From the NCBI GenBank assembly GCA_036276755.1, contig DASUOG010000011.1, forward strand, positions 3,125 through 67,124: a stretch of DNA of 64,000 bases, given 5' to 3'. Shown piece after piece: positions 2,980 through 38,077 of this stretch. The position numbers and the translations under genes were made by a program. The notes below the pieces were generated by a model. The model was not told the DNA's origin, made no database searches, and was given only the letters and a program-made list of their open reading frames with translations. How positions within the stretch are numbered: position 1 is the first letter of the stretch; each line of letters opens with the position of its first letter. Source of the stretch: Candidatus Saccharimonadales bacterium. GTDB taxonomy: Bacteria > Patescibacteriota > Saccharimonadia > Saccharimonadales > 2-12-FULL-41-12.

Positions 2980-3273
2980 TTAATTAAACAATAATGCTTC
3001 CTCGGCTACGCAACTGTCGCCTTCGCACTGTTTTGCCAACAGCTGATCATATTGCTCTTTTTTGCGTTTAGGCTCGTCTACGGGCGCACTTCCGATCTCG
3101 GTCATGAAGGGTAAAACCCTTGATGCGAACCTACCGATATTAGCAAGGACGGAACCGTTGGATCTTTCTGCCCGATCTGCAGCCTCCGCCCAATCGCGGC
3201 TGGCTATCAAACATACTCTTCTGGCCTCACACACTCTACCTATTCTTTCGCAAAAAGTAGTGTCACCGGACAT
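2980..3273 (-). CDS. hypothetical 97-aa Cys-containing protein between rpsG and fusA
   Basis: An internal ATG of the 2980..3378 track ORF lies 4 nt after the rpsG stop. The ORF's stop is 10 nt before the fusA ATG, and that spacer contains AAGGGA. The product [21 protein letters not shown]...QCEGDSC... matches no known family. Confidence 0.4.
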
Positions 3274-11892: not shown

Positions 11893-13230
11893 CTAGCAAC
11901 CCGGGTCATTAGCTGCCAAAACCGCTTTGATTTCCCGTCTGCGCAGAAAACTTCTTCTTGGAGTGTGGTTTAAGGCTCTTAGGAGCGCTTGTTCTCTTAT
12001 TTCGCCGGCTACGCGAGAAACCGTATCTCCCGCCGAACCTTGAGCGCTGACTCCTAACTCATGCAGGTCCCGCACCGGCCTGATTACCGATTCCAGAACA
12101 TCATCCGCTCCCGGGCCGAACGATTCACCCGTGATTACCTTCCTTAAGGAGCCCGAATATACCGCTGATATCCTTTCTCTAATACTATCCATGACGGTCT
12201 CGGGTTGATACCCGATTGCGCTTTGCAGAGGGCCAAGGAACGCCAGTGTTTCCTCGGCTGTGGCAAGATTTACATCATCAACACCCCTCCGCGCAAGCAG
12301 ATCGTCCAAGGCATGGGCAAAATCCATATACAATCCGCCTTTTACGGCTGTCGGTAATTCCAAGTTTGAGAGCTCATCGGCGGAGCCAGTCACGCCCAAG
12401 CCCAGCATGCACCTTTTGGCCAGAGCCGCCGTCAAAGAATCTCTCTTTGCTATTTTAGCCGAGAGCGCATCAACAGCTTCGTTGCCGTATGCCACCATCG
12501 TAGGCAGACTTAATGCCCTTACCGTACTATGGTCAGCGAAGGGTCTTTTATCCGCGTTTAAGATATTGCCGACGGTACTTTCAACTTCCTGTGCAGAACC
12601 GGCAAAATGCACCCTATCAAAAGGCAGGTCATGATTGGCGTGCACGGAAGTGTAGGCCATGTCATCGCTGGCCTTCTTGGCAAAAACCTTGACCGAACCG
12701 GCTGTGACGTCATCGAGCGTAAATCCTCTTGCGGAGTGTACTGGTATAGTTAATTCGCGTTTACCCGGTTTGCTTCCCTCTTTTTTGCTAAAATGCGGTG
12801 CATAACTACCTAAAGCACCTCCGGCTTGACCGTAAACTACCCTTGCCAAGCCAAATTTGCTTACCTCATCCGCACTGCTGATGATTATTATCGGCTGAGG
12901 TCCGTCCGCGATCTTATCGACATGTGAAAAATAATCTTTTATTTCATCTGCCGACCTCCCCCTGACTGCCATGATTTCACGCAAGGTTTCCCTATCAAGA
13001 GCATCTTCGCCCGCGGTTTCAACCGCAGAAAGAACAGTGGTACGGACTTGGGCCAGATCCGAAGTTGCCGAGTCGACCGTTGCTTCCGCGTCCGCTAAAA
13101 AACCGGATGCCGCCTGGTAAGACATTTCCGCCTGCTCTTTTACGGTTTCGGCGGCGGTAACTCTTAGTTGCGCCATAGCTAAATCAGTACCAAACCGTTC
13201 GCGCGCCTCACCGGGACCCAGATCCCCCAT
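11893..13230 (-). CDS. hypothetical 445-aa soluble protein (Ala/Asp/Glu-rich, no Walker A, no TM segment)
   Basis: A long ORF with a strong SD (AAGGAG 9-10 nt upstream of the ATG) and a TTGCAA-N17-TATCGT promoter-like sequence. It has no motif I recognise. It lies immediately downstream of clpP. Confidence 0.8.
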   Translation of the reverse strand: MGDLGPGEARERFGTDLAMAQLRVTAAETVKEQAEMSYQAASGFLADAEATVDSATSDLAQVRTTVLSAVETAGEDALDRETLREIMAVRGRSADEIKDYFSHVDKIADGPQPIIIISSADEVSKFGLARVVYGQAGGALGSYAPHFSKKEGSKPGKRELTIPVHSARGFTLDDVTAGSVKVFAKKASDDMAYTSVHANHDLPFDRVHFAGSAQEVESTVGNILNADKRPFADHSTVRALSLPTMVAYGNEAVDALSAKIAKRDSLTAALAKRCMLGLGVTGSADELSNLELPTAVKGGLYMDFAHALDDLLARRGVDDVNLATAEETLAFLGPLQSAIGYQPETVMDSIRERISAVYSGSLRKVITGESFGPGADDVLESVIRPVRDLHELGVSAQGSAGDTVSRVAGEIREQALLRALNHTPRRSFLRRREIKAVLAANDPGC

Positions 13231-13307: not shown

Positions 13308-13928
13308 TTATTTATTTTTAGGAGATTTTGTAAGGGTAGTTATGATTTCGTCAACAATACCATAATCTTTGGCTTCTTTAGCAGTCAGCCATTTGTCGCG
13401 CTCCATGTCACCATGGATTTTCTCGACTTTCTGGCCGGTGTTTTGGGCCATGATTTCTTCAAGCAGTTTTTTGACGCGCAAGGCTTCCTTCAGATCGATC
13501 TCCTGGTCGGTCACCTTGCCCCTGGTGCCGCTGGAAGGTTGATGGATCATAACGGTCGCATGCTGCAGCAGCGAACGTTTGCCCCTGGTGCCGCTGCTAA
13601 GCAGGAATGCGGCGGCGCTGGCCTGCACGCCGATACCGACGGTTTGAATATCATTTTTTACATACTGCATGGTATCGTAAATCGCCAACGCATCGTAAAC
13701 ACTACCGCCCGGACTGTTTATATAAAGCTTTATATCCTTGTTCGGGTTCTCGTTAGCCAGGAATAAAAGTTGGGCTACCACCAAGTTTGCGGTATGTTGG
13801 TTGACATCGGTGCCGAGAAAAATAATATTATCACGAAGCAACCGGCTGTAGATGTCATAAGCCCGCTCCATACGGCCCTCGGTTTCTATGACGGTCGGGA
13901 TCAATATCTGGCTTTTTGGTTCATTCAT
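13308..13928 (-). CDS. clpP: ATP-dependent Clp protease proteolytic subunit
   Basis: 206 aa with canonical ClpP blocks ([38 protein letters not shown]). Confidence 0.97.
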
Positions 13929-13948
13929 AGCAATTGATTATAAATTAA

Positions 13949-13975
13949 TTAGCACTCGGAAGTCAAGAGTGCCAA
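13949..13975 (-). promoter_or_regulatory. CIRCE-like inverted repeat (HrcA operator) overlapping the clpP promoter
   Basis: The plus strand reads TTAGCACTC-ggaagtcaa-GAGTGCCAA, against the consensus TTAGCACTC-N9-GAGTGCTAA. The spacer contains the -35 element TTGACT on the minus strand. TATAAT lies at 13942..13937, 8 nt before the clpP ATG. Confidence 0.8.
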
Positions 13976-13997
13976 TAAACCCCGCAAACGGGCCGAT

Positions 13998-14396
13998 TTA
14001 CTTCTGGCTTAACGCGGCCGTAAGCACGTCCTCATCAAAAAAATAACTTTTAATCAAATCTATTTCCTCCAAGGTGCCTCCGTTAGGTCCGCACAGATAA
14101 AGACTTTCTCCGTCTTCTATAGGTAACTCCACTACCACACCCTCGCTCACCACAAAATCACCGGCCGCAGACGGACGGATCAGCTCATTGACCGCAGACC
14201 TATCCAGCTCGCCGGGCGGAATCTCCTCTACGGCGTGGCCGGATAAGATAATGGACTTTGCTTGACCTCCCCGGCCGCTTTCAGCTTCGACCGCCTCAAA
14301 TCTTTTAAATATTCGGCTGGGGCATACGGTAACTGTTTGAAAACCCGACTTGTTTTCGCCTATTTCACCTATTTTCAACATTTTTTTCAAAACCAT
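13998..14396 (-). CDS. hypothetical 132-aa protein between tig and clpP
   Basis: The ORF fills the tig-clpP gap on the same strand. No recognisable domain. Confidence 0.55.
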   Translation of the reverse strand: MVLKKMLKIGEIGENKSGFQTVTVCPSRIFKRFEAVEAESGRGGQAKSIILSGHAVEEIPPGELDRSAVNELIRPSAAGDFVVSEGVVVELPIEDGESLYLCGPNGGTLEEIDLIKSYFFDEDVLTAALSQK

Positions 14397-14437: not shown

Positions 14438-15724
14438 CTATTTGCCGGTAGCGTATTCTTCGAGTCTGGCCAGTACCTTATCAGTCAGCATCCTGGAAGC
14501 TACATCTTCCCGGGCTTCCGGTTTATCGAGCTCTGTCTGCATCTGCTGGTCCTTATACTGGCCCTTCAATATCTGCATCCTCACTTCGAGCTCTTCCGGC
14601 GTTACGCTCAGGCCTTCCGCATCGGCGATCTCGGACAAGATTATACTGCCTTTTATCTGCAATTCTGCCTGTGGCCGCAAAACTTCGTTGCGGTACCTTT
14701 CCTCCGTGGTGTTTTCCATCTTCAAGTATTCCTGCAATGTCTGGCCGCGGTAAGCGATATTACGCTTTACGTCTTCCAAATTGTGGCTTATCTGGTGCTC
14801 GATCATCGATTCAGGAATGGCCACCGAACTTTTTTCGGAAATTTTTTCCACCAGTTTGTTGGCATACTCCTTATTCGCTTGGGCCTGCTTCTCGTTTGTA
14901 AGCTGTTTTTTGACATCGGCCTTTAGGTCTTTGAGCGTCTTGAACGGCCCGACCTTCGAGGCGAAATCATCATCAAGCGGCGGTTTAGTTAACCCATGAA
15001 CGTTTTTGATATTCACACTAAAACGGACTTTTTTGCCGGCCAGGGCTTTCACGCTGTAATCCTTTGGAAAAGTAAGGTCAAATGTCTTCTCGTCGCCGGG
15101 TTTCAGACCGACTAGATTATCTTCAAAGCCCGGGATGAACGTGTTGCTGCCGATAGCCAGTGGATAATCTTTGCCTTCGGCGCCGTTTATAGGTGCGCCT
15201 TTTTCGTCAACGCCCCTAAAATCAATCACAACCTCGTCGGATTTTTTTATCGGCCGGCTGACTTCGCTTTTATCGGCCGTGCGCTGCTGCAGGGACTCCA
15301 ACACGTCATTTATATCCTGCGCACTAACTTCCGGGTCAGGTTTTTCAAGCTTGATATTTTTATAATCGGCCAGTTTTGCCTTTCCCACGACATCAGTAGT
15401 TATTTCAAACTCCAGTTGACTGAAAGGAACGAACTTCTTAACGTTGACTTCCGGTTTGCCTACCGGACGGATCTTTTCGCGGGCGGCGGCATGGCTGTAA
15501 AGAGCGGTCATCGCCTCATCCAAAAATTCCCTTTGCAGAACAGTCTGGTCGACATTCTTTTCGACCAGGTTCAACGGCGCTTTACCCGGACGGAAACCGG
15601 CTAACTTTACCTCTTTGCTTAATCTAGTGAGCACCGCCTGCTTGAACGGCGATAATTCATCGACACCGGCGCTTATCGCCAGCTTAACTTTGGTGCTCGA
15701 TATATTAGTAACGCTAACTTGCAT
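14438..15724 (-). CDS. tig: trigger factor
   Basis: 428 aa with the N-terminal ribosome-binding signature GFRPGKAP, a central PPIase region and a C-terminal arm domain. Confidence 0.95.
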   Translation of the reverse strand: MQVSVTNISSTKVKLAISAGVDELSPFKQAVLTRLSKEVKLAGFRPGKAPLNLVEKNVDQTVLQREFLDEAMTALYSHAAAREKIRPVGKPEVNVKKFVPFSQLEFEITTDVVGKAKLADYKNIKLEKPDPEVSAQDINDVLESLQQRTADKSEVSRPIKKSDEVVIDFRGVDEKGAPINGAEGKDYPLAIGSNTFIPGFEDNLVGLKPGDEKTFDLTFPKDYSVKALAGKKVRFSVNIKNVHGLTKPPLDDDFASKVGPFKTLKDLKADVKKQLTNEKQAQANKEYANKLVEKISEKSSVAIPESMIEHQISHNLEDVKRNIAYRGQTLQEYLKMENTTEERYRNEVLRPQAELQIKGSIILSEIADAEGLSVTPEELEVRMQILKGQYKDQQMQTELDKPEAREDVASRMLTDKVLARLEEYATGK

Positions 15725-34273: not shown

Positions 34274-36754
34274 TTAGGCTACGGCGGCGGCTTCTTTTTT
34301 GCCGGAGAAGAAAATCTTGCCTTTTTTTACACCGATATTTATGACCGTGCCTTTGCCGTATCTGCCGGACAATAGTCCGTCTGAAATCTCATCTTCCACG
34401 GTATCTTGCAGGAGCCGGCGCATTGGACGCACGCCGTTCTGCGGATCATAACCTTTCTCGACCAGTAGCTTCTTGGCGGACTCACTGAGCCTGACGGCGA
34501 GACCCTGGCGTACCAACCGATCGTTAAGCTCCTTAAGCTGGAGATCCAGTATCCTGGCGACTTCGGGCTTGGTGAGCGCTCTAAAAACGATTGTCTTATC
34601 TATCCTGTTTAGAAGTTCCGGCCGCATGGTTTTTTTCAAACTTTCCATCACGTTTTCCTTGTTCGATTCATGGAGTTCTACGAGATCCTCTATATCTTTT
34701 CTGGATTCTACTCTAAAGCCGAATTGCGATTCCTTCTGCAGCTTTTCGGCGCCTATATTGCTGGTCATTATCACTATGGTGTTCGAAAAATCAATTTCCC
34801 GGCCTTTGCCGTCAGTCAACCGTCCGTCTTCCAATATTTGCAGCATCATATTGAAAACGTCGGGATGAGCCTTCTCAATCTCATCGAACAGTACCAAGCT
34901 GTACGGCTGGCGGCGAATTTTATCAGTCAATTGTCCGCCGTCGTCATATCCTACATAGCCGGCAGGCGCCCCCATCAGGCGGGAAACATTGTGGTGCTCA
35001 CCGAATTCACTCATGTCTATCTTTATCAGAGCGTTTTCACTGCCGAAGAATTCCCGAGCTAAAACTCTAGCGAGTTCAGTCTTACCGACGCCGGTAGGAC
35101 CCAGGAAGATGAACGAGCCGATAGGCCGTTTATCGTCGGTAACTCCGCTTCGGCTGCGGCGTACTGCCGAAGATACCGCTGCAATAGCTTCTTGCTGACC
35201 GATGATGTATTTGCTTAACGTTTTCTCCAGATTCAATAAATAGCGGGCCTCACTCCTGATTACCTTCGACACCGGCACACCGGTAATCCGGGCAACCACC
35301 TCCGCTACATCATCACTGGTAAGTTTGATGATTTTCCCATCATTATATTTGGATTGCAGCTTGATGATTTCTTCGCTCAGCCGGGAAGCCTTGGTCTTCA
35401 GATTGGCCGCGGTCTCATAATCCTCAGCGGTGGCGGCATCTTCTATCCTGACCTGCAATAAGCGAAGTTCCTTTTGGGCCTTGCGTAATTCAGGCGGCGT
35501 CTTGCCTTTGCCGACACGTACATATGCCGAAGCTTCATCTATAAGGTCGATAGCCTTGTCCGGCATGAACCGGTCGTTGATGTATCTTTTGGCAAACCGT
35601 ACCGTGTCTTCGATTACCTCGTCGCTGATTTTTACATTATGAAACGATTCATAATGCTTCCTCAGACCGCGCAATATACCGACGGTCTCGGTGTCGGTAG
35701 CTTCGGGGACTATAACCGGCTGGAAACGCCTTTCTAAAGCCGCGTCTTTTTCTACGTGTCTGGTGTATTCGGCTATGGTGGTAGCGCCGATAAGCTGTAT
35801 CTTGCCTCTGGCCAATGCCGGTTTGAGCATATTGCCGGCATCCATAGCGCCTTCTGCTGCACCGGCGCCGACTATCAGGTGTATCTCGTCGACAAATACG
35901 ATTGTTTTCTTATCCTGTTCCAGCTCGGTCATGACTTTTTTCAGCCTGTCTTCAAATTCACCGCGATACTTGGTACCGGCAATCATGCTGGCCAGGTCAA
36001 GCATTATCAAACGTTTGCCGATGAGGCTGTCCGGGACATCCTCCGCAATGATACGGGCCGCGAGTCCTTCCACTATAGCGGTCTTCCCTACTCCGGGTTC
36101 ACCGATGAGTACGGGATTATTCTTGGTACGCCGGCTTAATATTGTTATGACTCGTGCCAGCTGGGCATCCCGTCCGATTACCGGATCAAGCCCGCCCTGG
36201 CGAGCCTTGGCGGTAAGATCGGTCCCAAAAAAGTCCAGGGCGGTTTTGCGGCCTTTTTTCTGTTTGCGTGCCGCGCTCAGATGGCTGCTGTTACCCTGCT
36301 GACGATTTAGAAACTGTTCCAGTTCGCCGAGCAAAGGCTCTACGGCTACGCCCATGGAACGCAGCATTTCACTGGCACGGGCGTTCTTTTGGCTTAAGAT
36401 GCTAAACAGTATATGTTCGGTACCGCAGTTTTCCTGGTTGTAATCCTGTGCAATCTCATAAGCCATGTTCAACGTGAGTTTTGCAACCTCGCTCAGCCCC
36501 TTGGAAACAACCGATCCGAGGGGTGCCGGATTCACGTTCAGGGCCAGCTTGGCCTTCTGCAAGGTAACGCCGGCATTATCCAGCATCTTCGCACCTATGG
36601 AGGCTTCCTGCGCTAAAACGCCGAGCAATAAGTGCTCGGTACCGACATAAGGACTACCGGTACTTCTGGCAATACCGTCCGCATTACGTAGACTGGCTAA
36701 TGCGTTCTCGGTCAGATGATTCAAAAAATCTTGGAAATCTGCTGATGGAGGCAT
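34274..36754 (-). CDS. clpC: ATP-dependent Clp protease ATP-binding subunit ClpC
   Basis: Clp_N repeats and two AAA+ modules (GEPGVGKT, GPTGVGKT). I placed the start at MPPSADF (ATG 36754), 6 nt after a TATAAT box. The track TTG start at 36781 lies inside the CIRCE element. Confidence 0.95.
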   Translation of the reverse strand: MPPSADFQDFLNHLTENALASLRNADGIARSTGSPYVGTEHLLLGVLAQEASIGAKMLDNAGVTLQKAKLALNVNPAPLGSVVSKGLSEVAKLTLNMAYEIAQDYNQENCGTEHILFSILSQKNARASEMLRSMGVAVEPLLGELEQFLNRQQGNSSHLSAARKQKKGRKTALDFFGTDLTAKARQGGLDPVIGRDAQLARVITILSRRTKNNPVLIGEPGVGKTAIVEGLAARIIAEDVPDSLIGKRLIMLDLASMIAGTKYRGEFEDRLKKVMTELEQDKKTIVFVDEIHLIVGAGAAEGAMDAGNMLKPALARGKIQLIGATTIAEYTRHVEKDAALERRFQPVIVPEATDTETVGILRGLRKHYESFHNVKISDEVIEDTVRFAKRYINDRFMPDKAIDLIDEASAYVRVGKGKTPPELRKAQKELRLLQVRIEDAATAEDYETAANLKTKASRLSEEIIKLQSKYNDGKIIKLTSDDVAEVVARITGVPVSKVIRSEARYLLNLEKTLSKYIIGQQEAIAAVSSAVRRSRSGVTDDKRPIGSFIFLGPTGVGKTELARVLAREFFGSENALIKIDMSEFGEHHNVSRLMGAPAGYVGYDDGGQLTDKIRRQPYSLVLFDEIEKAHPDVFNMMLQILEDGRLTDGKGREIDFSNTIVIMTSNIGAEKLQKESQFGFRVESRKDIEDLVELHESNKENVMESLKKTMRPELLNRIDKTIVFRALTKPEVARILDLQLKELNDRLVRQGLAVRLSESAKKLLVEKGYDPQNGVRPMRRLLQDTVEDEISDGLLSGRYGKGTVINIGVKKGKIFFSGKKEAAAVA

Positions 36755-36770
36755 GCCCCTATTATACCAA

Positions 36771-36797
36771 TTAGCACTCAATATGCAAGAGTGCCAA
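36771..36797 (-). promoter_or_regulatory. CIRCE-like inverted repeat (HrcA operator) overlapping the clpC promoter
   Basis: The plus strand reads TTAGCACTC-aatatgcaa-GAGTGCCAA. The minus-strand spacer contains the -35 element TTGCAT, followed by 16 nt and then TATAAT at 36766..36761. Confidence 0.8.
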
Positions 36798-36838: not shown

Positions 36839-36863
36839 CGAAACAGTCCCCGGGACTGTTTCG
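36839..36863 (-). terminator. perfect 25-nt palindrome downstream of nusA (hairpin without a U-tract)
   Basis: CGAAACAGTCCC-C-GGGACTGTTTCG, 12 nt after the nusA stop. Neither strand has a flanking T-run, so its function as a terminator is uncertain. Confidence 0.45.
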
Positions 36864-36874
36864 GATCAAGAGTG

Positions 36875-38077
36875 CTAATTTGGATTTTTTTCTTGCTTGG
36901 ATTCGGGCTGTTCGTCGCCGTGTTCTTCTATGGCTTCGAGTAGGCTGGATTCCAATTGTTCCTTCTTCTTTAGTTTCTGGCCGCCCTTGGGTTTAGAGGT
37001 AGAAGGCTCGGTCTTCGGCGTTTCCTTTTCGCCGCCTCCGCTCTCGGACACTATGTCAAGCTCATATCCGGTCAGCTTGCTGGCTAGCCGTACATTCTGT
37101 CCATTCTTGCCGATAGCGATACTTAACTGGTCTTCAGGCACCATGATGACAGCTTTTTTCTCCGCTTCATCTATATTTACGTTCGCTACTTTGGTCGGAC
37201 TCAGGGCATTTTCAATAAACTGCTGGGGTGATTCATTCCACACTATAATGTCTATCTTCTCTTGCTCACCTACTTCGCTCATCACAGCGTTTACGCGCGT
37301 ACCGTGACCGCCCACGAAAGTTCCTACCGGATCGACTCCCGGCACCGTGCTGGCGACCGCTATCTTACTGCGCACACCGGCTTCGCGGGCTATAGCCTTT
37401 ATGGATACTGCGCCGCTTTCCATCTCGGGCACTTCCGCGCGGAACAGCCACTCCATGAATTCAGTATTACCGCGGGAGACCACAAGTTGAGGACCGCGAG
37501 ATGTGCGTTCCACATCTTTTAAATAGATCTTCAGGCGCTGTCCGGGATAGTATTTTTCGCCTTGGATCTGCTCGCTAGCCGGCATGATAGCCTGTGTCTT
37601 ACCCAGATCCAAACGTACAATACGACCTTCCACGCGCGAAACTACGCCATTGATCACCGTGCCGATTTTGTCCTGGAACTCATTGATAATGATTTCGCGT
37701 TCTGCTTCGCGTAACCTTTGCAGGATTACCTGCTTAGCAGTCTGGGCAGCTACCCGGCCAAAGGCCTCCGGCTGTTCCTCTATCTCTACTACATCGCCGG
37801 CTTTGGCACCTTTTTTGTATTTCTGTGCATCCGTAACGGTTATTTCGAAATGCTCGTCTTCGATATTTTCGACGACTTCTTTGGAAGTATAAATACTGAT
37901 TGTGCCGGTATTAAGATTTATCTCCGTGCGGATTTCTTGTTCGCGCTCACCGAAATCCTTTCGATAAGCGGCGGCCAAGGCCTGCTCAACCACTTCTTTG
38001 ACCGAATCTTCAGGTAAGCTCTTCTCTTCGGCGATGGATTTGATAACCACTGCCAGCTGCTTAAAATCTAATTCCAT
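36875..38077 (-). CDS. nusA: transcription termination/antitermination factor NusA
   Basis: NusA N-terminal, S1 and two KH domains (IAIGKNGQNVRLASKLTG). It has an acidic/lysine-rich C-terminal tail. Confidence 0.96.
   Translation of the reverse strand: MELDFKQLAVVIKSIAEEKSLPEDSVKEVVEQALAAAYRKDFGEREQEIRTEINLNTGTISIYTSKEVVENIEDEHFEITVTDAQKYKKGAKAGDVVEIEEQPEAFGRVAAQTAKQVILQRLREAEREIIINEFQDKIGTVINGVVSRVEGRIVRLDLGKTQAIMPASEQIQGEKYYPGQRLKIYLKDVERTSRGPQLVVSRGNTEFMEWLFRAEVPEMESGAVSIKAIAREAGVRSKIAVASTVPGVDPVGTFVGGHGTRVNAVMSEVGEQEKIDIIVWNESPQQFIENALSPTKVANVNIDEAEKKAVIMVPEDQLSIAIGKNGQNVRLASKLTGYELDIVSESGGGEKETPKTEPSTSKPKGGQKLKKKEQLESSLLEAIEEHGDEQPESKQEKNPN

Follow-up and report, generated by a model that had tools for sequence, protein, structure and literature searches.

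The window, by which we mean the whole 64-kb stretch of DNA that was analysed (G+C content 48.8%), encodes on its minus strand a ClpP protein, a trigger factor (tig) 5′ of clpP, and a ClpC-type Hsp100 ATPase (Table 1). The best matches to this ClpP among 185,579 species genomes are Saccharimonadales MAGs from soil and groundwater, which share 85–90% identity with it and by which the window is assigned to the Saccharimonadales (Saccharibacteria/TM7, Patescibacteria). Directly 5′ of clpP lies an inverted repeat that reads TTAGCACTCGGAAGTCAAGAGTGCCAA on the plus strand, i.e., TTAGCACTC-N9-GAGTGCCAA, and that matches 17 of the 18 positions of the CIRCE consensus used here (TTAGCACTC-N9-GAGTGCTAA, a 9-bp inverted repeat separated by a 9-nt spacer). 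The single deviation is a T to C exchange on the plus strand; read on the gene strand, it turns an A of the left arm into G. In the direction of clpP transcription the elements follow one another in the order TTGGCACTC TTGACTTCC GAGTGCTAA TTAATT TATAAT CAATTGCT ATG, so that the spacer of the repeat harbors a −35 box. The pair TTGACT-18-TATAAT was also recovered, with 11 of 12 matches, by a consensus promoter scan that is independent of the CIRCE motif. An initial annotation of this DNA had proposed both the 17/18 CIRCE and the enclosed promoter at clpP; the sequence reading and the motif scan agree with the former, and the coordinates of the hexamers and the promoter scan agree with the latter.

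A second copy of the element precedes clpC. Here the gene strand reads TTGGCACTC TTGCATATT GAGTGCTAA TTGG TATAAT AGGGGC ATG, and both the layout and the A to G deviation are the same as at clpP; the recurrence of the element with this deviation had been noticed in the initial annotation. The −35-like hexamer in the spacer of this copy, TTGCAT, is weak; it falls under the threshold of the promoter scan and was not called. A TTGCA variant of the −35 box also occurs in the clpP spacers of two related loci (L004, L009). The 826-aa ATPase encoded downstream is predicted from its domain make-up to be ClpC-like and not ClpB-like. Its residues 677–679 form an FGF tripeptide at the position of the ClpP-docking loop, where the relative at locus L263 has LGF. 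The short middle domain and the FGF at the docking-loop position together make this ATPase a plausible partner of ClpP.

The surroundings of both genes are conserved. Trigger factor lies 5′ of clpP in 15 of the 16 relatives for which upstream DNA is available, and transcription reading through from tig would traverse the clpP CIRCE. A small GC hairpin is found between the stop codon of orf132 and the CIRCE and may act as a weak terminator. The order nusA / clpC-orf323-radA is likewise maintained at Saccharibacteria clpC loci, with nusA 5′ in nine of 11 and orf323 and radA 3′ in 10 of 11 each. With regard to translation, the −10 boxes stand 6–8 nt from the start codons and no Shine-Dalgarno sequence is present, which suggests that the clpP and clpC mRNAs are leaderless or nearly so. 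The same arrangement, TAnnnT positioned 6–10 nt before an ATG that lacks a Shine-Dalgarno sequence, characterizes approximately 12–15 of the 40 gene starts in the window, including those of tig, radA, a pilB-like gene, and uvrB; its frequency supports the assignment of the −10 boxes at the clp genes.

Table 1. Genes and promoter elements at the clpP and clpC loci, in positions of the 64-kb window
Feature	Positions	Strand	Remarks
clpP, 206 aa	13308..13928	−	PF00574, E 8.5e-74; NCBIfam NF001368, 285 bits (cut-off 249)
−10 box TATAAT, clpP	13937..13942	−	18 nt past TTGACT, 8 nt ahead of ATG at 13928
CIRCE, clpP	13949..13975	−	gene strand TTGGCACTC-TTGACTTCC-GAGTGCTAA, 17/18
−35 box TTGACT, clpP	13961..13966	−	within 9-nt CIRCE spacer TTGACTTCC
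Small GC hairpin CCCG-UUUG-CGGG, then GUUUAUU	13981..13992	−	between orf132 stop codon and CIRCE; RNA fold
tig (trigger factor)	14438..15724	−	TIGR00115, E 3.5e-111; conserved neighbor 5′ of clpP
clpC-type Hsp100 ATPase, 826 aa	34274..36754	−	two Clp_N repeats, two AAA modules, short middle domain
−10 box TATAAT, clpC	36761..36766	−	4 nt past CIRCE, 6 nt ahead of ATG at 36754
CIRCE, clpC	36771..36797	−	gene strand TTGGCACTC-TTGCATATT-GAGTGCTAA, 17/18
Weak −35-like hexamer TTGCAT, clpC	36783..36788	−	in spacer, 16 nt 5′ of −10 box

When up to three mismatches were allowed, the clpP and clpC sites were the only CIRCE matches in the 64 kb, where 0.02 would be expected, and none of 100 shuffled sequences gave two matches. 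Both sites are intergenic, and each overlaps a −35/−10 pair directly 5′ of its gene; the scan for random occurrence within genes, which had been suggested along with the initial annotation, thus returned these two intergenic sites only within the window. The possibility that the clpP element is a chance palindrome has nothing in its favor beyond the fact that short motifs in general can arise by chance and is, in view of the shuffling result, the identical geometry of the two sites, and their phylum-wide conservation described below, negligible.

For an assessment of this conservation, clpP and clpC loci were picked by protein homology and not by motif, clpP loci being restricted to those with upstream DNA; this choice keeps the motif from biasing the test. 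A CIRCE matching the consensus at 16–18 of 18 positions is present within approximately 75 nt of the gene in all 16 Saccharibacteria clpP loci, and in each of them the spacer contains TTGAC or TTGCA, followed by a −10-like hexamer approximately 17 nt further on. At clpC, the element is present in 10 of 11 Saccharibacteria loci, with the same range of consensus matches and the same two spacer variants. No CIRCE was found at any of the 18 control loci from outside the Saccharibacteria, i.e., nine clpP loci (from Acidobacteriota, Kapaibacteriales, Gracilibacteria, Peregrinibacteria, Desulfocapsaceae, and a MAG labelled Gammaproteobacteria) and nine clpC loci (from Firmicutes, Actinomycetes, and others). 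In an alignment anchored on the element, information content is high at three places only, namely, both arms, the −35 TTG(A/C), and the two bases (TT) that follow the right arm, the flanks being unconstrained. Such a profile reads as the footprint of a predicted protein-binding site merged with a promoter.

Two registers of the −35 box can be distinguished. In the window and in most relatives, it follows directly on the left arm; in a second group of loci (L001–L003, L007, L081, L083, L088, L090), it occupies the 3′ end of the spacer and overlaps the first G of the right arm. The −10 box is found 16–18 nt further on in both registers, and the distance class between −10 box and ATG seen at clpP recurs in the closest relatives (L001–L003, L006, L007). 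The clp genes are not universal members of the CIRCE-bearing set: the MAG JBASLU01 has hrcA and a CIRCE at dnaK, but its clpC is without the element, which indicates that the clp membership of the regulon varies.

The fusion of operator and promoter extends to further stress genes. The composite motif TTAGCACTC-TTGAC-N4-GAGTGCTAA was scanned in the 185,579 species genomes and found at a minimum of 120 loci, mostly from Saccharibacteria among the matches listed. For the Saccharibacteria-labelled loci among these matches, 71 of the 73 callable first downstream ORFs, taken in the direction of TTGAC, fall into five classes, namely, DnaK (26), ClpC-type ATPase (24), HrcA (10), ClpP (8), and Hsp20 (3). 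Six more of the loci listed are labelled just "bacterium" and have DnaK, Hsp20, or HrcA downstream. No groES or groEL gene lies behind the composite in Saccharibacteria among the matches listed, nor was one seen in the Saccharibacteria loci examined. The idea that Saccharibacteria lack GroESL and that HrcA works there without it was rejected, since the cultured Saccharibacterium TM7x encodes both GroES (TM7x_00180) and GroEL (TM7x_00185). The composite is also located 5′ of hrcA in Streptococcus mitis, Streptococcus oralis, and other CPR phyla, as well as 5′ of groEL in some cyanobacteria, and a −35 box within the CIRCE spacer is therefore not unique to Saccharibacteria.

The repressor itself, identified in this lineage by the Pfam domains PF03444 (wHTH) and PF01628, is widespread. 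A scan by HrcA alignment detected hrcA in at least about 35 Saccharibacteria-labelled MAGs at 29–79% identity, most of them at 55–79%. Among the matches listed, 31 of the 33 closest Saccharibacteria hrcA loci bear a CIRCE of at least 15/18 within 140 nt 5′ of the gene; judged by sequence, this is the classical autoregulatory arrangement. Individual genomes combine several of these features. One MAG (CAYSOP01) contains a CIRCE at clpP (L006) together with hrcA and a CIRCE at dnaK (L211), another locus (L263) has hrcA directly 5′ of clpC with a cassette of its own at each gene, and L242 presents the cassette at both clpC and clpP. In the window, neither hrcA nor dnaK nor groESL is present, and none of the 80 hrcA loci among the matches listed comes from the reference MAGs closest to the window (DASSOT01, DASUKF01, JANWLD01, JACRNE01). 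Exact protein matching beyond the window led, for ClpP, to a single 7.3-kb Logan contig (SRR25158519) and gave no match for EF-G or a sugar kinase. The source genome of the window presumably encodes hrcA nonetheless.

The HrcA proteins of Saccharibacteria and other CPR bacteria are short. They comprise 225–250 aa and retain the wHTH and both halves of the C-terminal domain, while one contiguous internal block of approximately 100 aa that is present in the 340-aa HrcA of Firmicutes is missing. This block is what we take to be the "inserted dimerizing domain" of the Thermotoga maritima HrcA structure. A search of PDB sequences with HrcA from this lineage aligned the wHTH domain alone, to T. maritima HrcA (1STZ). 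Given the difference of some 100 aa, the behavior of the lineage HrcA cannot simply be assumed from that of Bacillus or Chlamydia.

HrcA is described as a repressor that occupies CIRCE elements situated within promoters or close to them and that ceases to bind under stress, with GroEL proposed to maintain its activity (PMC8762339; PMC7737663). Against this background, the 27-bp repeat is very probably an HrcA operator fused to a σ70-type clpP promoter, with a second copy serving clpC in the same manner and repression exerted by occlusion. According to the geometry of the site, an HrcA dimer seated on both arms would mask the −35 region and keep RNA polymerase out. As the half-sites flank the −35 box on either side, with 4–6 nt between the right arm and the −10 box, binding of the dimer and of σ region 4 would be mutually exclusive. 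Inactivation of HrcA by proteotoxic stress would then allow the clpP and clpC promoters to fire together. The resulting transcripts would begin at the ATG or within approximately 2 nt of it, yielding leaderless mRNAs, and a joint rise of ClpC and ClpP would supply the ClpCP protease. Since the CIRCE is placed 5′ of the −10 box, it lies outside the transcript of its own promoter, so that RNA-level effects ascribed to a transcribed CIRCE would not apply.

Alternatively, the inverted repeat could serve at the level of RNA. In such an account, the repeat would mainly form a hairpin that terminates or insulates read-through from tig and orf132 in the case of clpP, or from nusA in the case of clpC, the likeness to CIRCE being secondary; a milder form would be a dual operator and terminator. 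The gene strand does fold into hairpins of 9–10 bp at the two sites, with −12.5 and −12.6 kcal/mol and z = −5.0 and −3.5, a U-rich stretch follows (UUAAUUUAUAAU at clpP), TT is conserved past the right arm with T-runs there in many relatives, and each element lies directly 3′ of a co-oriented gene. A hairpin with a U-rich tail on tig or nusA read-through transcripts could thus also insulate the clp promoters. However, a terminator needs pairing and not a fixed sequence, whereas the arms are identical at the unlinked clpP, clpC, dnaK, hrcA, and hsp20 genes across dozens of species and fit the HrcA consensus. Moreover, the 9-nt loop holds a conserved −35 box that would be superfluous for a terminator, neither site was called by a terminator scan, and the tail at clpC contains just four T in eight bases. 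Termination as the sole function is unlikely, and we give the RNA-based account as a whole little credence.

Less probable still is the view that the CIRCE sequences are real but non-functional here, either because hrcA has been lost or because they are served by a different factor or by none at all, with clpP and clpC being constitutive or controlled elsewhere. Compatible with it are the lack of hrcA within the 64-kb window, the one consensus deviation at each site, the relative whose clpC is without a CIRCE, and the divergent expression of a clp ATPase gene and dnaK in TM7x. In the symbiosis transcriptome of the latter, the Clp ATPase gene TM7x_03020 changes by +0.79, in contrast to −2.18 for dnaK, −1.34 for dnaJ, −1.38 for groES, and −1.14 for groEL (log2, same comparison). 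The pattern is ambiguous: it is unlike a simple co-regulation of clp and chaperone genes, and it stems from a different family, so that it counts only as a caution. An earlier TM7x preprint had clpB and clpP up together. On the other hand, a genome that had lost the repressor would not be expected to keep both arms intact at two independent loci, the deviating arm TTgGCACTC recurs commonly among accepted sites (PMC545781, Table 8; also L004, L007, L084), and hrcA is present in the many Saccharibacteria-labelled MAGs mentioned above. With two sites intact and hrcA ubiquitous in the phylum, relic sites are very improbable.

Control by CtsR was considered in addition. The CtsR box, a direct repeat of RGTCADNNANRGTCADN, has two one-mismatch matches in the 64 kb (1.27 expected), at 3100 and 14252, and neither is at a clp promoter. 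The ctsR-mcsA-mcsB genes do not precede clpC; nusA stands there, as it does in most relatives. A dual control of clpP and clpC involving CtsR was rejected, as no CtsR box is near either promoter.

The sequence data are best read as evidence of an HrcA regulon that probably spans the phylum and has the ClpCP protease among its targets. A more far-reaching proposal is offered tentatively, and we regard it with some doubt: an HrcA of approximately 235 aa might be the single master regulator of DnaK, DnaJ, Hsp20, ClpC, ClpP, and itself in Saccharibacteria, perhaps in Patescibacteria generally, acting through a standardized cassette with the −35 box in the operator spacer and often giving rise to leaderless mRNAs. 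Control of ClpCP would in that event have moved from a CtsR-type to an HrcA-type repressor, and stress sensing would possibly be unlike the GroEL-titration model.

Saccharibacteria are a large, mostly uncultured epibiotic lineage with very few predicted regulators. A regulon defined by sequence across the phylum (dnaK, hrcA, hsp20, clpC, clpP) would be among the first circuits of these organisms that can be read directly from genomes. The cassette of CIRCE and promoter might furthermore provide a ready stress-responsive promoter-operator for Saccharibacteria genetic tools (PMC10633639). The system would also illustrate how, in a reduced genome, control over proteases can be transferred to the class I repressor, a parallel to Mycoplasma. 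No new mechanism is involved. A literature search found no report linking HrcA or CIRCE with Saccharibacteria, TM7, or Patescibacteria. The element and its mechanism are already known, and what is new is the lineage and the make-up of the regulon, i.e., ClpC, ClpP, Hsp20, DnaK, and HrcA, apparently without CtsR.

Among the heat-shock repressor systems of bacteria, none is more widespread than CIRCE/HrcA. The predicted Saccharibacteria system resembles its classical forms (dnaK and groESL in Bacillus subtilis; hrcA-grpE-dnaK and groESL in Chlamydia) in the 9-N9-9 operator, in the HrcA family with its wHTH and C-terminal domain, and, as far as the lineage can be judged by sequence, in the autoregulation of hrcA, the targeting of dnaK, and the placement of the operator within or near a housekeeping-σ promoter. 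Despite these similarities, several differences exist. The predicted targets in the window are clpP and clpC, two genes that CtsR controls in Firmicutes, no groESL appears among the Saccharibacteria matches listed, and the lineage HrcA is some 100 aa shorter. The geometry differs as well: in the window and in the relatives closest to it, the −35 box sits inside the operator and transcripts are predicted to be leaderless, whereas the CIRCE of B. subtilis is situated downstream of the transcription start. In comparative work, groESL has been described as the sole constant member of the CIRCE/HrcA regulon and dnaK as a frequent one, with clp genes under σ32 or CtsR (PMC545781).

The initial annotation had held that an expansion of HrcA control to proteases is reported mainly in mycoplasmas. 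HrcA of Mycoplasma pneumoniae indeed controls dnaJ, dnaK, clpB, groESL, lon, pepA, and pip (PMC7737663), so that lon and clpB bear out this part of the statement. As a generalization it is too narrow, because clpP of Streptococcus salivarius is reported to be under dual control by CtsR and HrcA (Chastanet & Msadek 2003, J Bacteriol 185:683) and clpL of Lactobacillus gasseri is reported to be HrcA-regulated (cited in PMC3192767). M. pneumoniae shares with the present lineage a reduced genome and the use of HrcA as a specific regulator of chaperones and ATP-dependent proteases, and a CIRCE separates its lon from the preceding tig, an arrangement that closely parallels the order tig-(orf)-CIRCE-clpP in the window. 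It differs in that the protease is Lon, the phylum is another one, and regulation is backed by experiment (a Lon-depletion response), while it is predicted here. The S. salivarius case, as reported, is similar with respect to a CIRCE-type control of clpP itself. That control is shared with CtsR, in contrast to the window, where neither promoter has a CtsR box and no ctsR operon precedes clpC. Finally, the CtsR regulon of Firmicutes (ctsR-mcsA-mcsB-clpC-radA, clpP, clpE) comprises the same target genes and exhibits the same clpC-...-radA order, but it employs a heptad direct-repeat operator and another repressor, and the position of ctsR-mcsA-mcsB is taken by nusA in the window.

Membership of the predicted HrcA regulon appears to vary among relatives of the window's genome. 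One Saccharimonadales metagenome-assembled genome, JBASLU01, has no CIRCE before clpC (locus L089, JBASLU010000061.1), where just a TATAAT lies close to the ATG. This genome still carries a dnaK-associated CIRCE and hrcA (locus L163, JBASLU010000020.1), so the place of clpC in the regulon would have been lost, or never gained, in some lineages. Among the matches listed for the composite operator-promoter, i.e., a CIRCE with a TTGAC −35 box in its 9-nt spacer (loci L161-L280), groES or groEL follows in none of the 73 Saccharibacteria matches with a callable downstream ORF. Both chaperonin genes are encoded by the cultured Saccharibacterium TM7x, according to the supplement of PMC10768705 (TM7x_00180 and TM7x_00185). 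Saccharibacterial groESL either carries a differently arranged CIRCE or lies outside the regulon.

In the window, clpP and clpC each possess one CIRCE and no second repeat. At the stop codon of nusA, the gene upstream of clpC, lies an overlapping solitary CIRCE half-site (TTAGCACTC on the gene strand, 36878..36870), followed by TTGAT and then by a perfect 10-bp hairpin (36840..36862) devoid of a U-tract; this region may represent a decayed second operator or a structure at the nusA 3′ end. Besides the CIRCE surrounding the −35 box, the dnaK and hrcA genes of relatives often have a second, weaker CIRCE-like repeat 3′ of the −10 box.

Roughly 12-15 of 40 window genes display a TAnnnT hexamer 6-10 nt 5′ of the ATG and no Shine-Dalgarno sequence, and leaderless mRNAs therefore seem to be common in this genome. 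The clpP genes of more distant relatives feature a 25-45 nt leader and a Shine-Dalgarno sequence.

The gene following clpP is not clpX, which is absent from the entire 64-kb window, but a 445-aa ORF that shares about 30% identity with its positional counterpart in two relatives' loci, L002 and L003. Between the trigger factor gene, tig, and clpP resides a 132-aa ORF, which the gene call on the Logan contig (SRR25158519) gives as 127 aa. No homologue of this ORF was found at the clpP loci of relatives; it is either restricted to this lineage or no real gene. Upstream of nusA, a further ORF yields only weak matches to sigma-70 regions 2 and 4 (best E value 3.9e-9, below cut-offs) and may encode a divergent sigma factor.

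Coordinates of the features discussed (positions refer to the window unless a relative's locus is named)
Feature	Position	Strand	Remark
Short hrcA	L263:1678-2424	+	
Short hrcA	L203:6845-7552	-	
Short hrcA	L259:2300-3007	-	
Short hrcA, other CPR loci	L199, L220, L313-L331		
TAnnnT-preceded gene starts	15724, 22415, 22968, 23555, 32733, 33227, 43369, 46199, 53682, 60416	all -	besides 13928 and 36754
Half-site and hairpin near nusA stop	36840-36878		
Second CIRCE-like repeat	L203; L270, L239		dnaK leader; hrcA leaders
445-aa ORF	11893-13230	-	no Pfam match
132-aa ORF	13998-14396	-	no Pfam match
ORF of up to 538 aa	38202-39818	-	weak sigma-70 family matches

The predicted repressor itself is unusually built. 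Sequence comparison of the loci revealed an HrcA of only 225-250 aa in Saccharibacteria and other CPR phyla, a form of which we found no mention in the literature searched. In these proteins the wHTH domain is retained, as are the two halves of the C-terminal domain, but one contiguous internal block comprising about 100 aa of the canonical 340-aa HrcA is missing. This block probably corresponds to the inserted dimerizing domain of Thermotoga maritima HrcA (1STZ).
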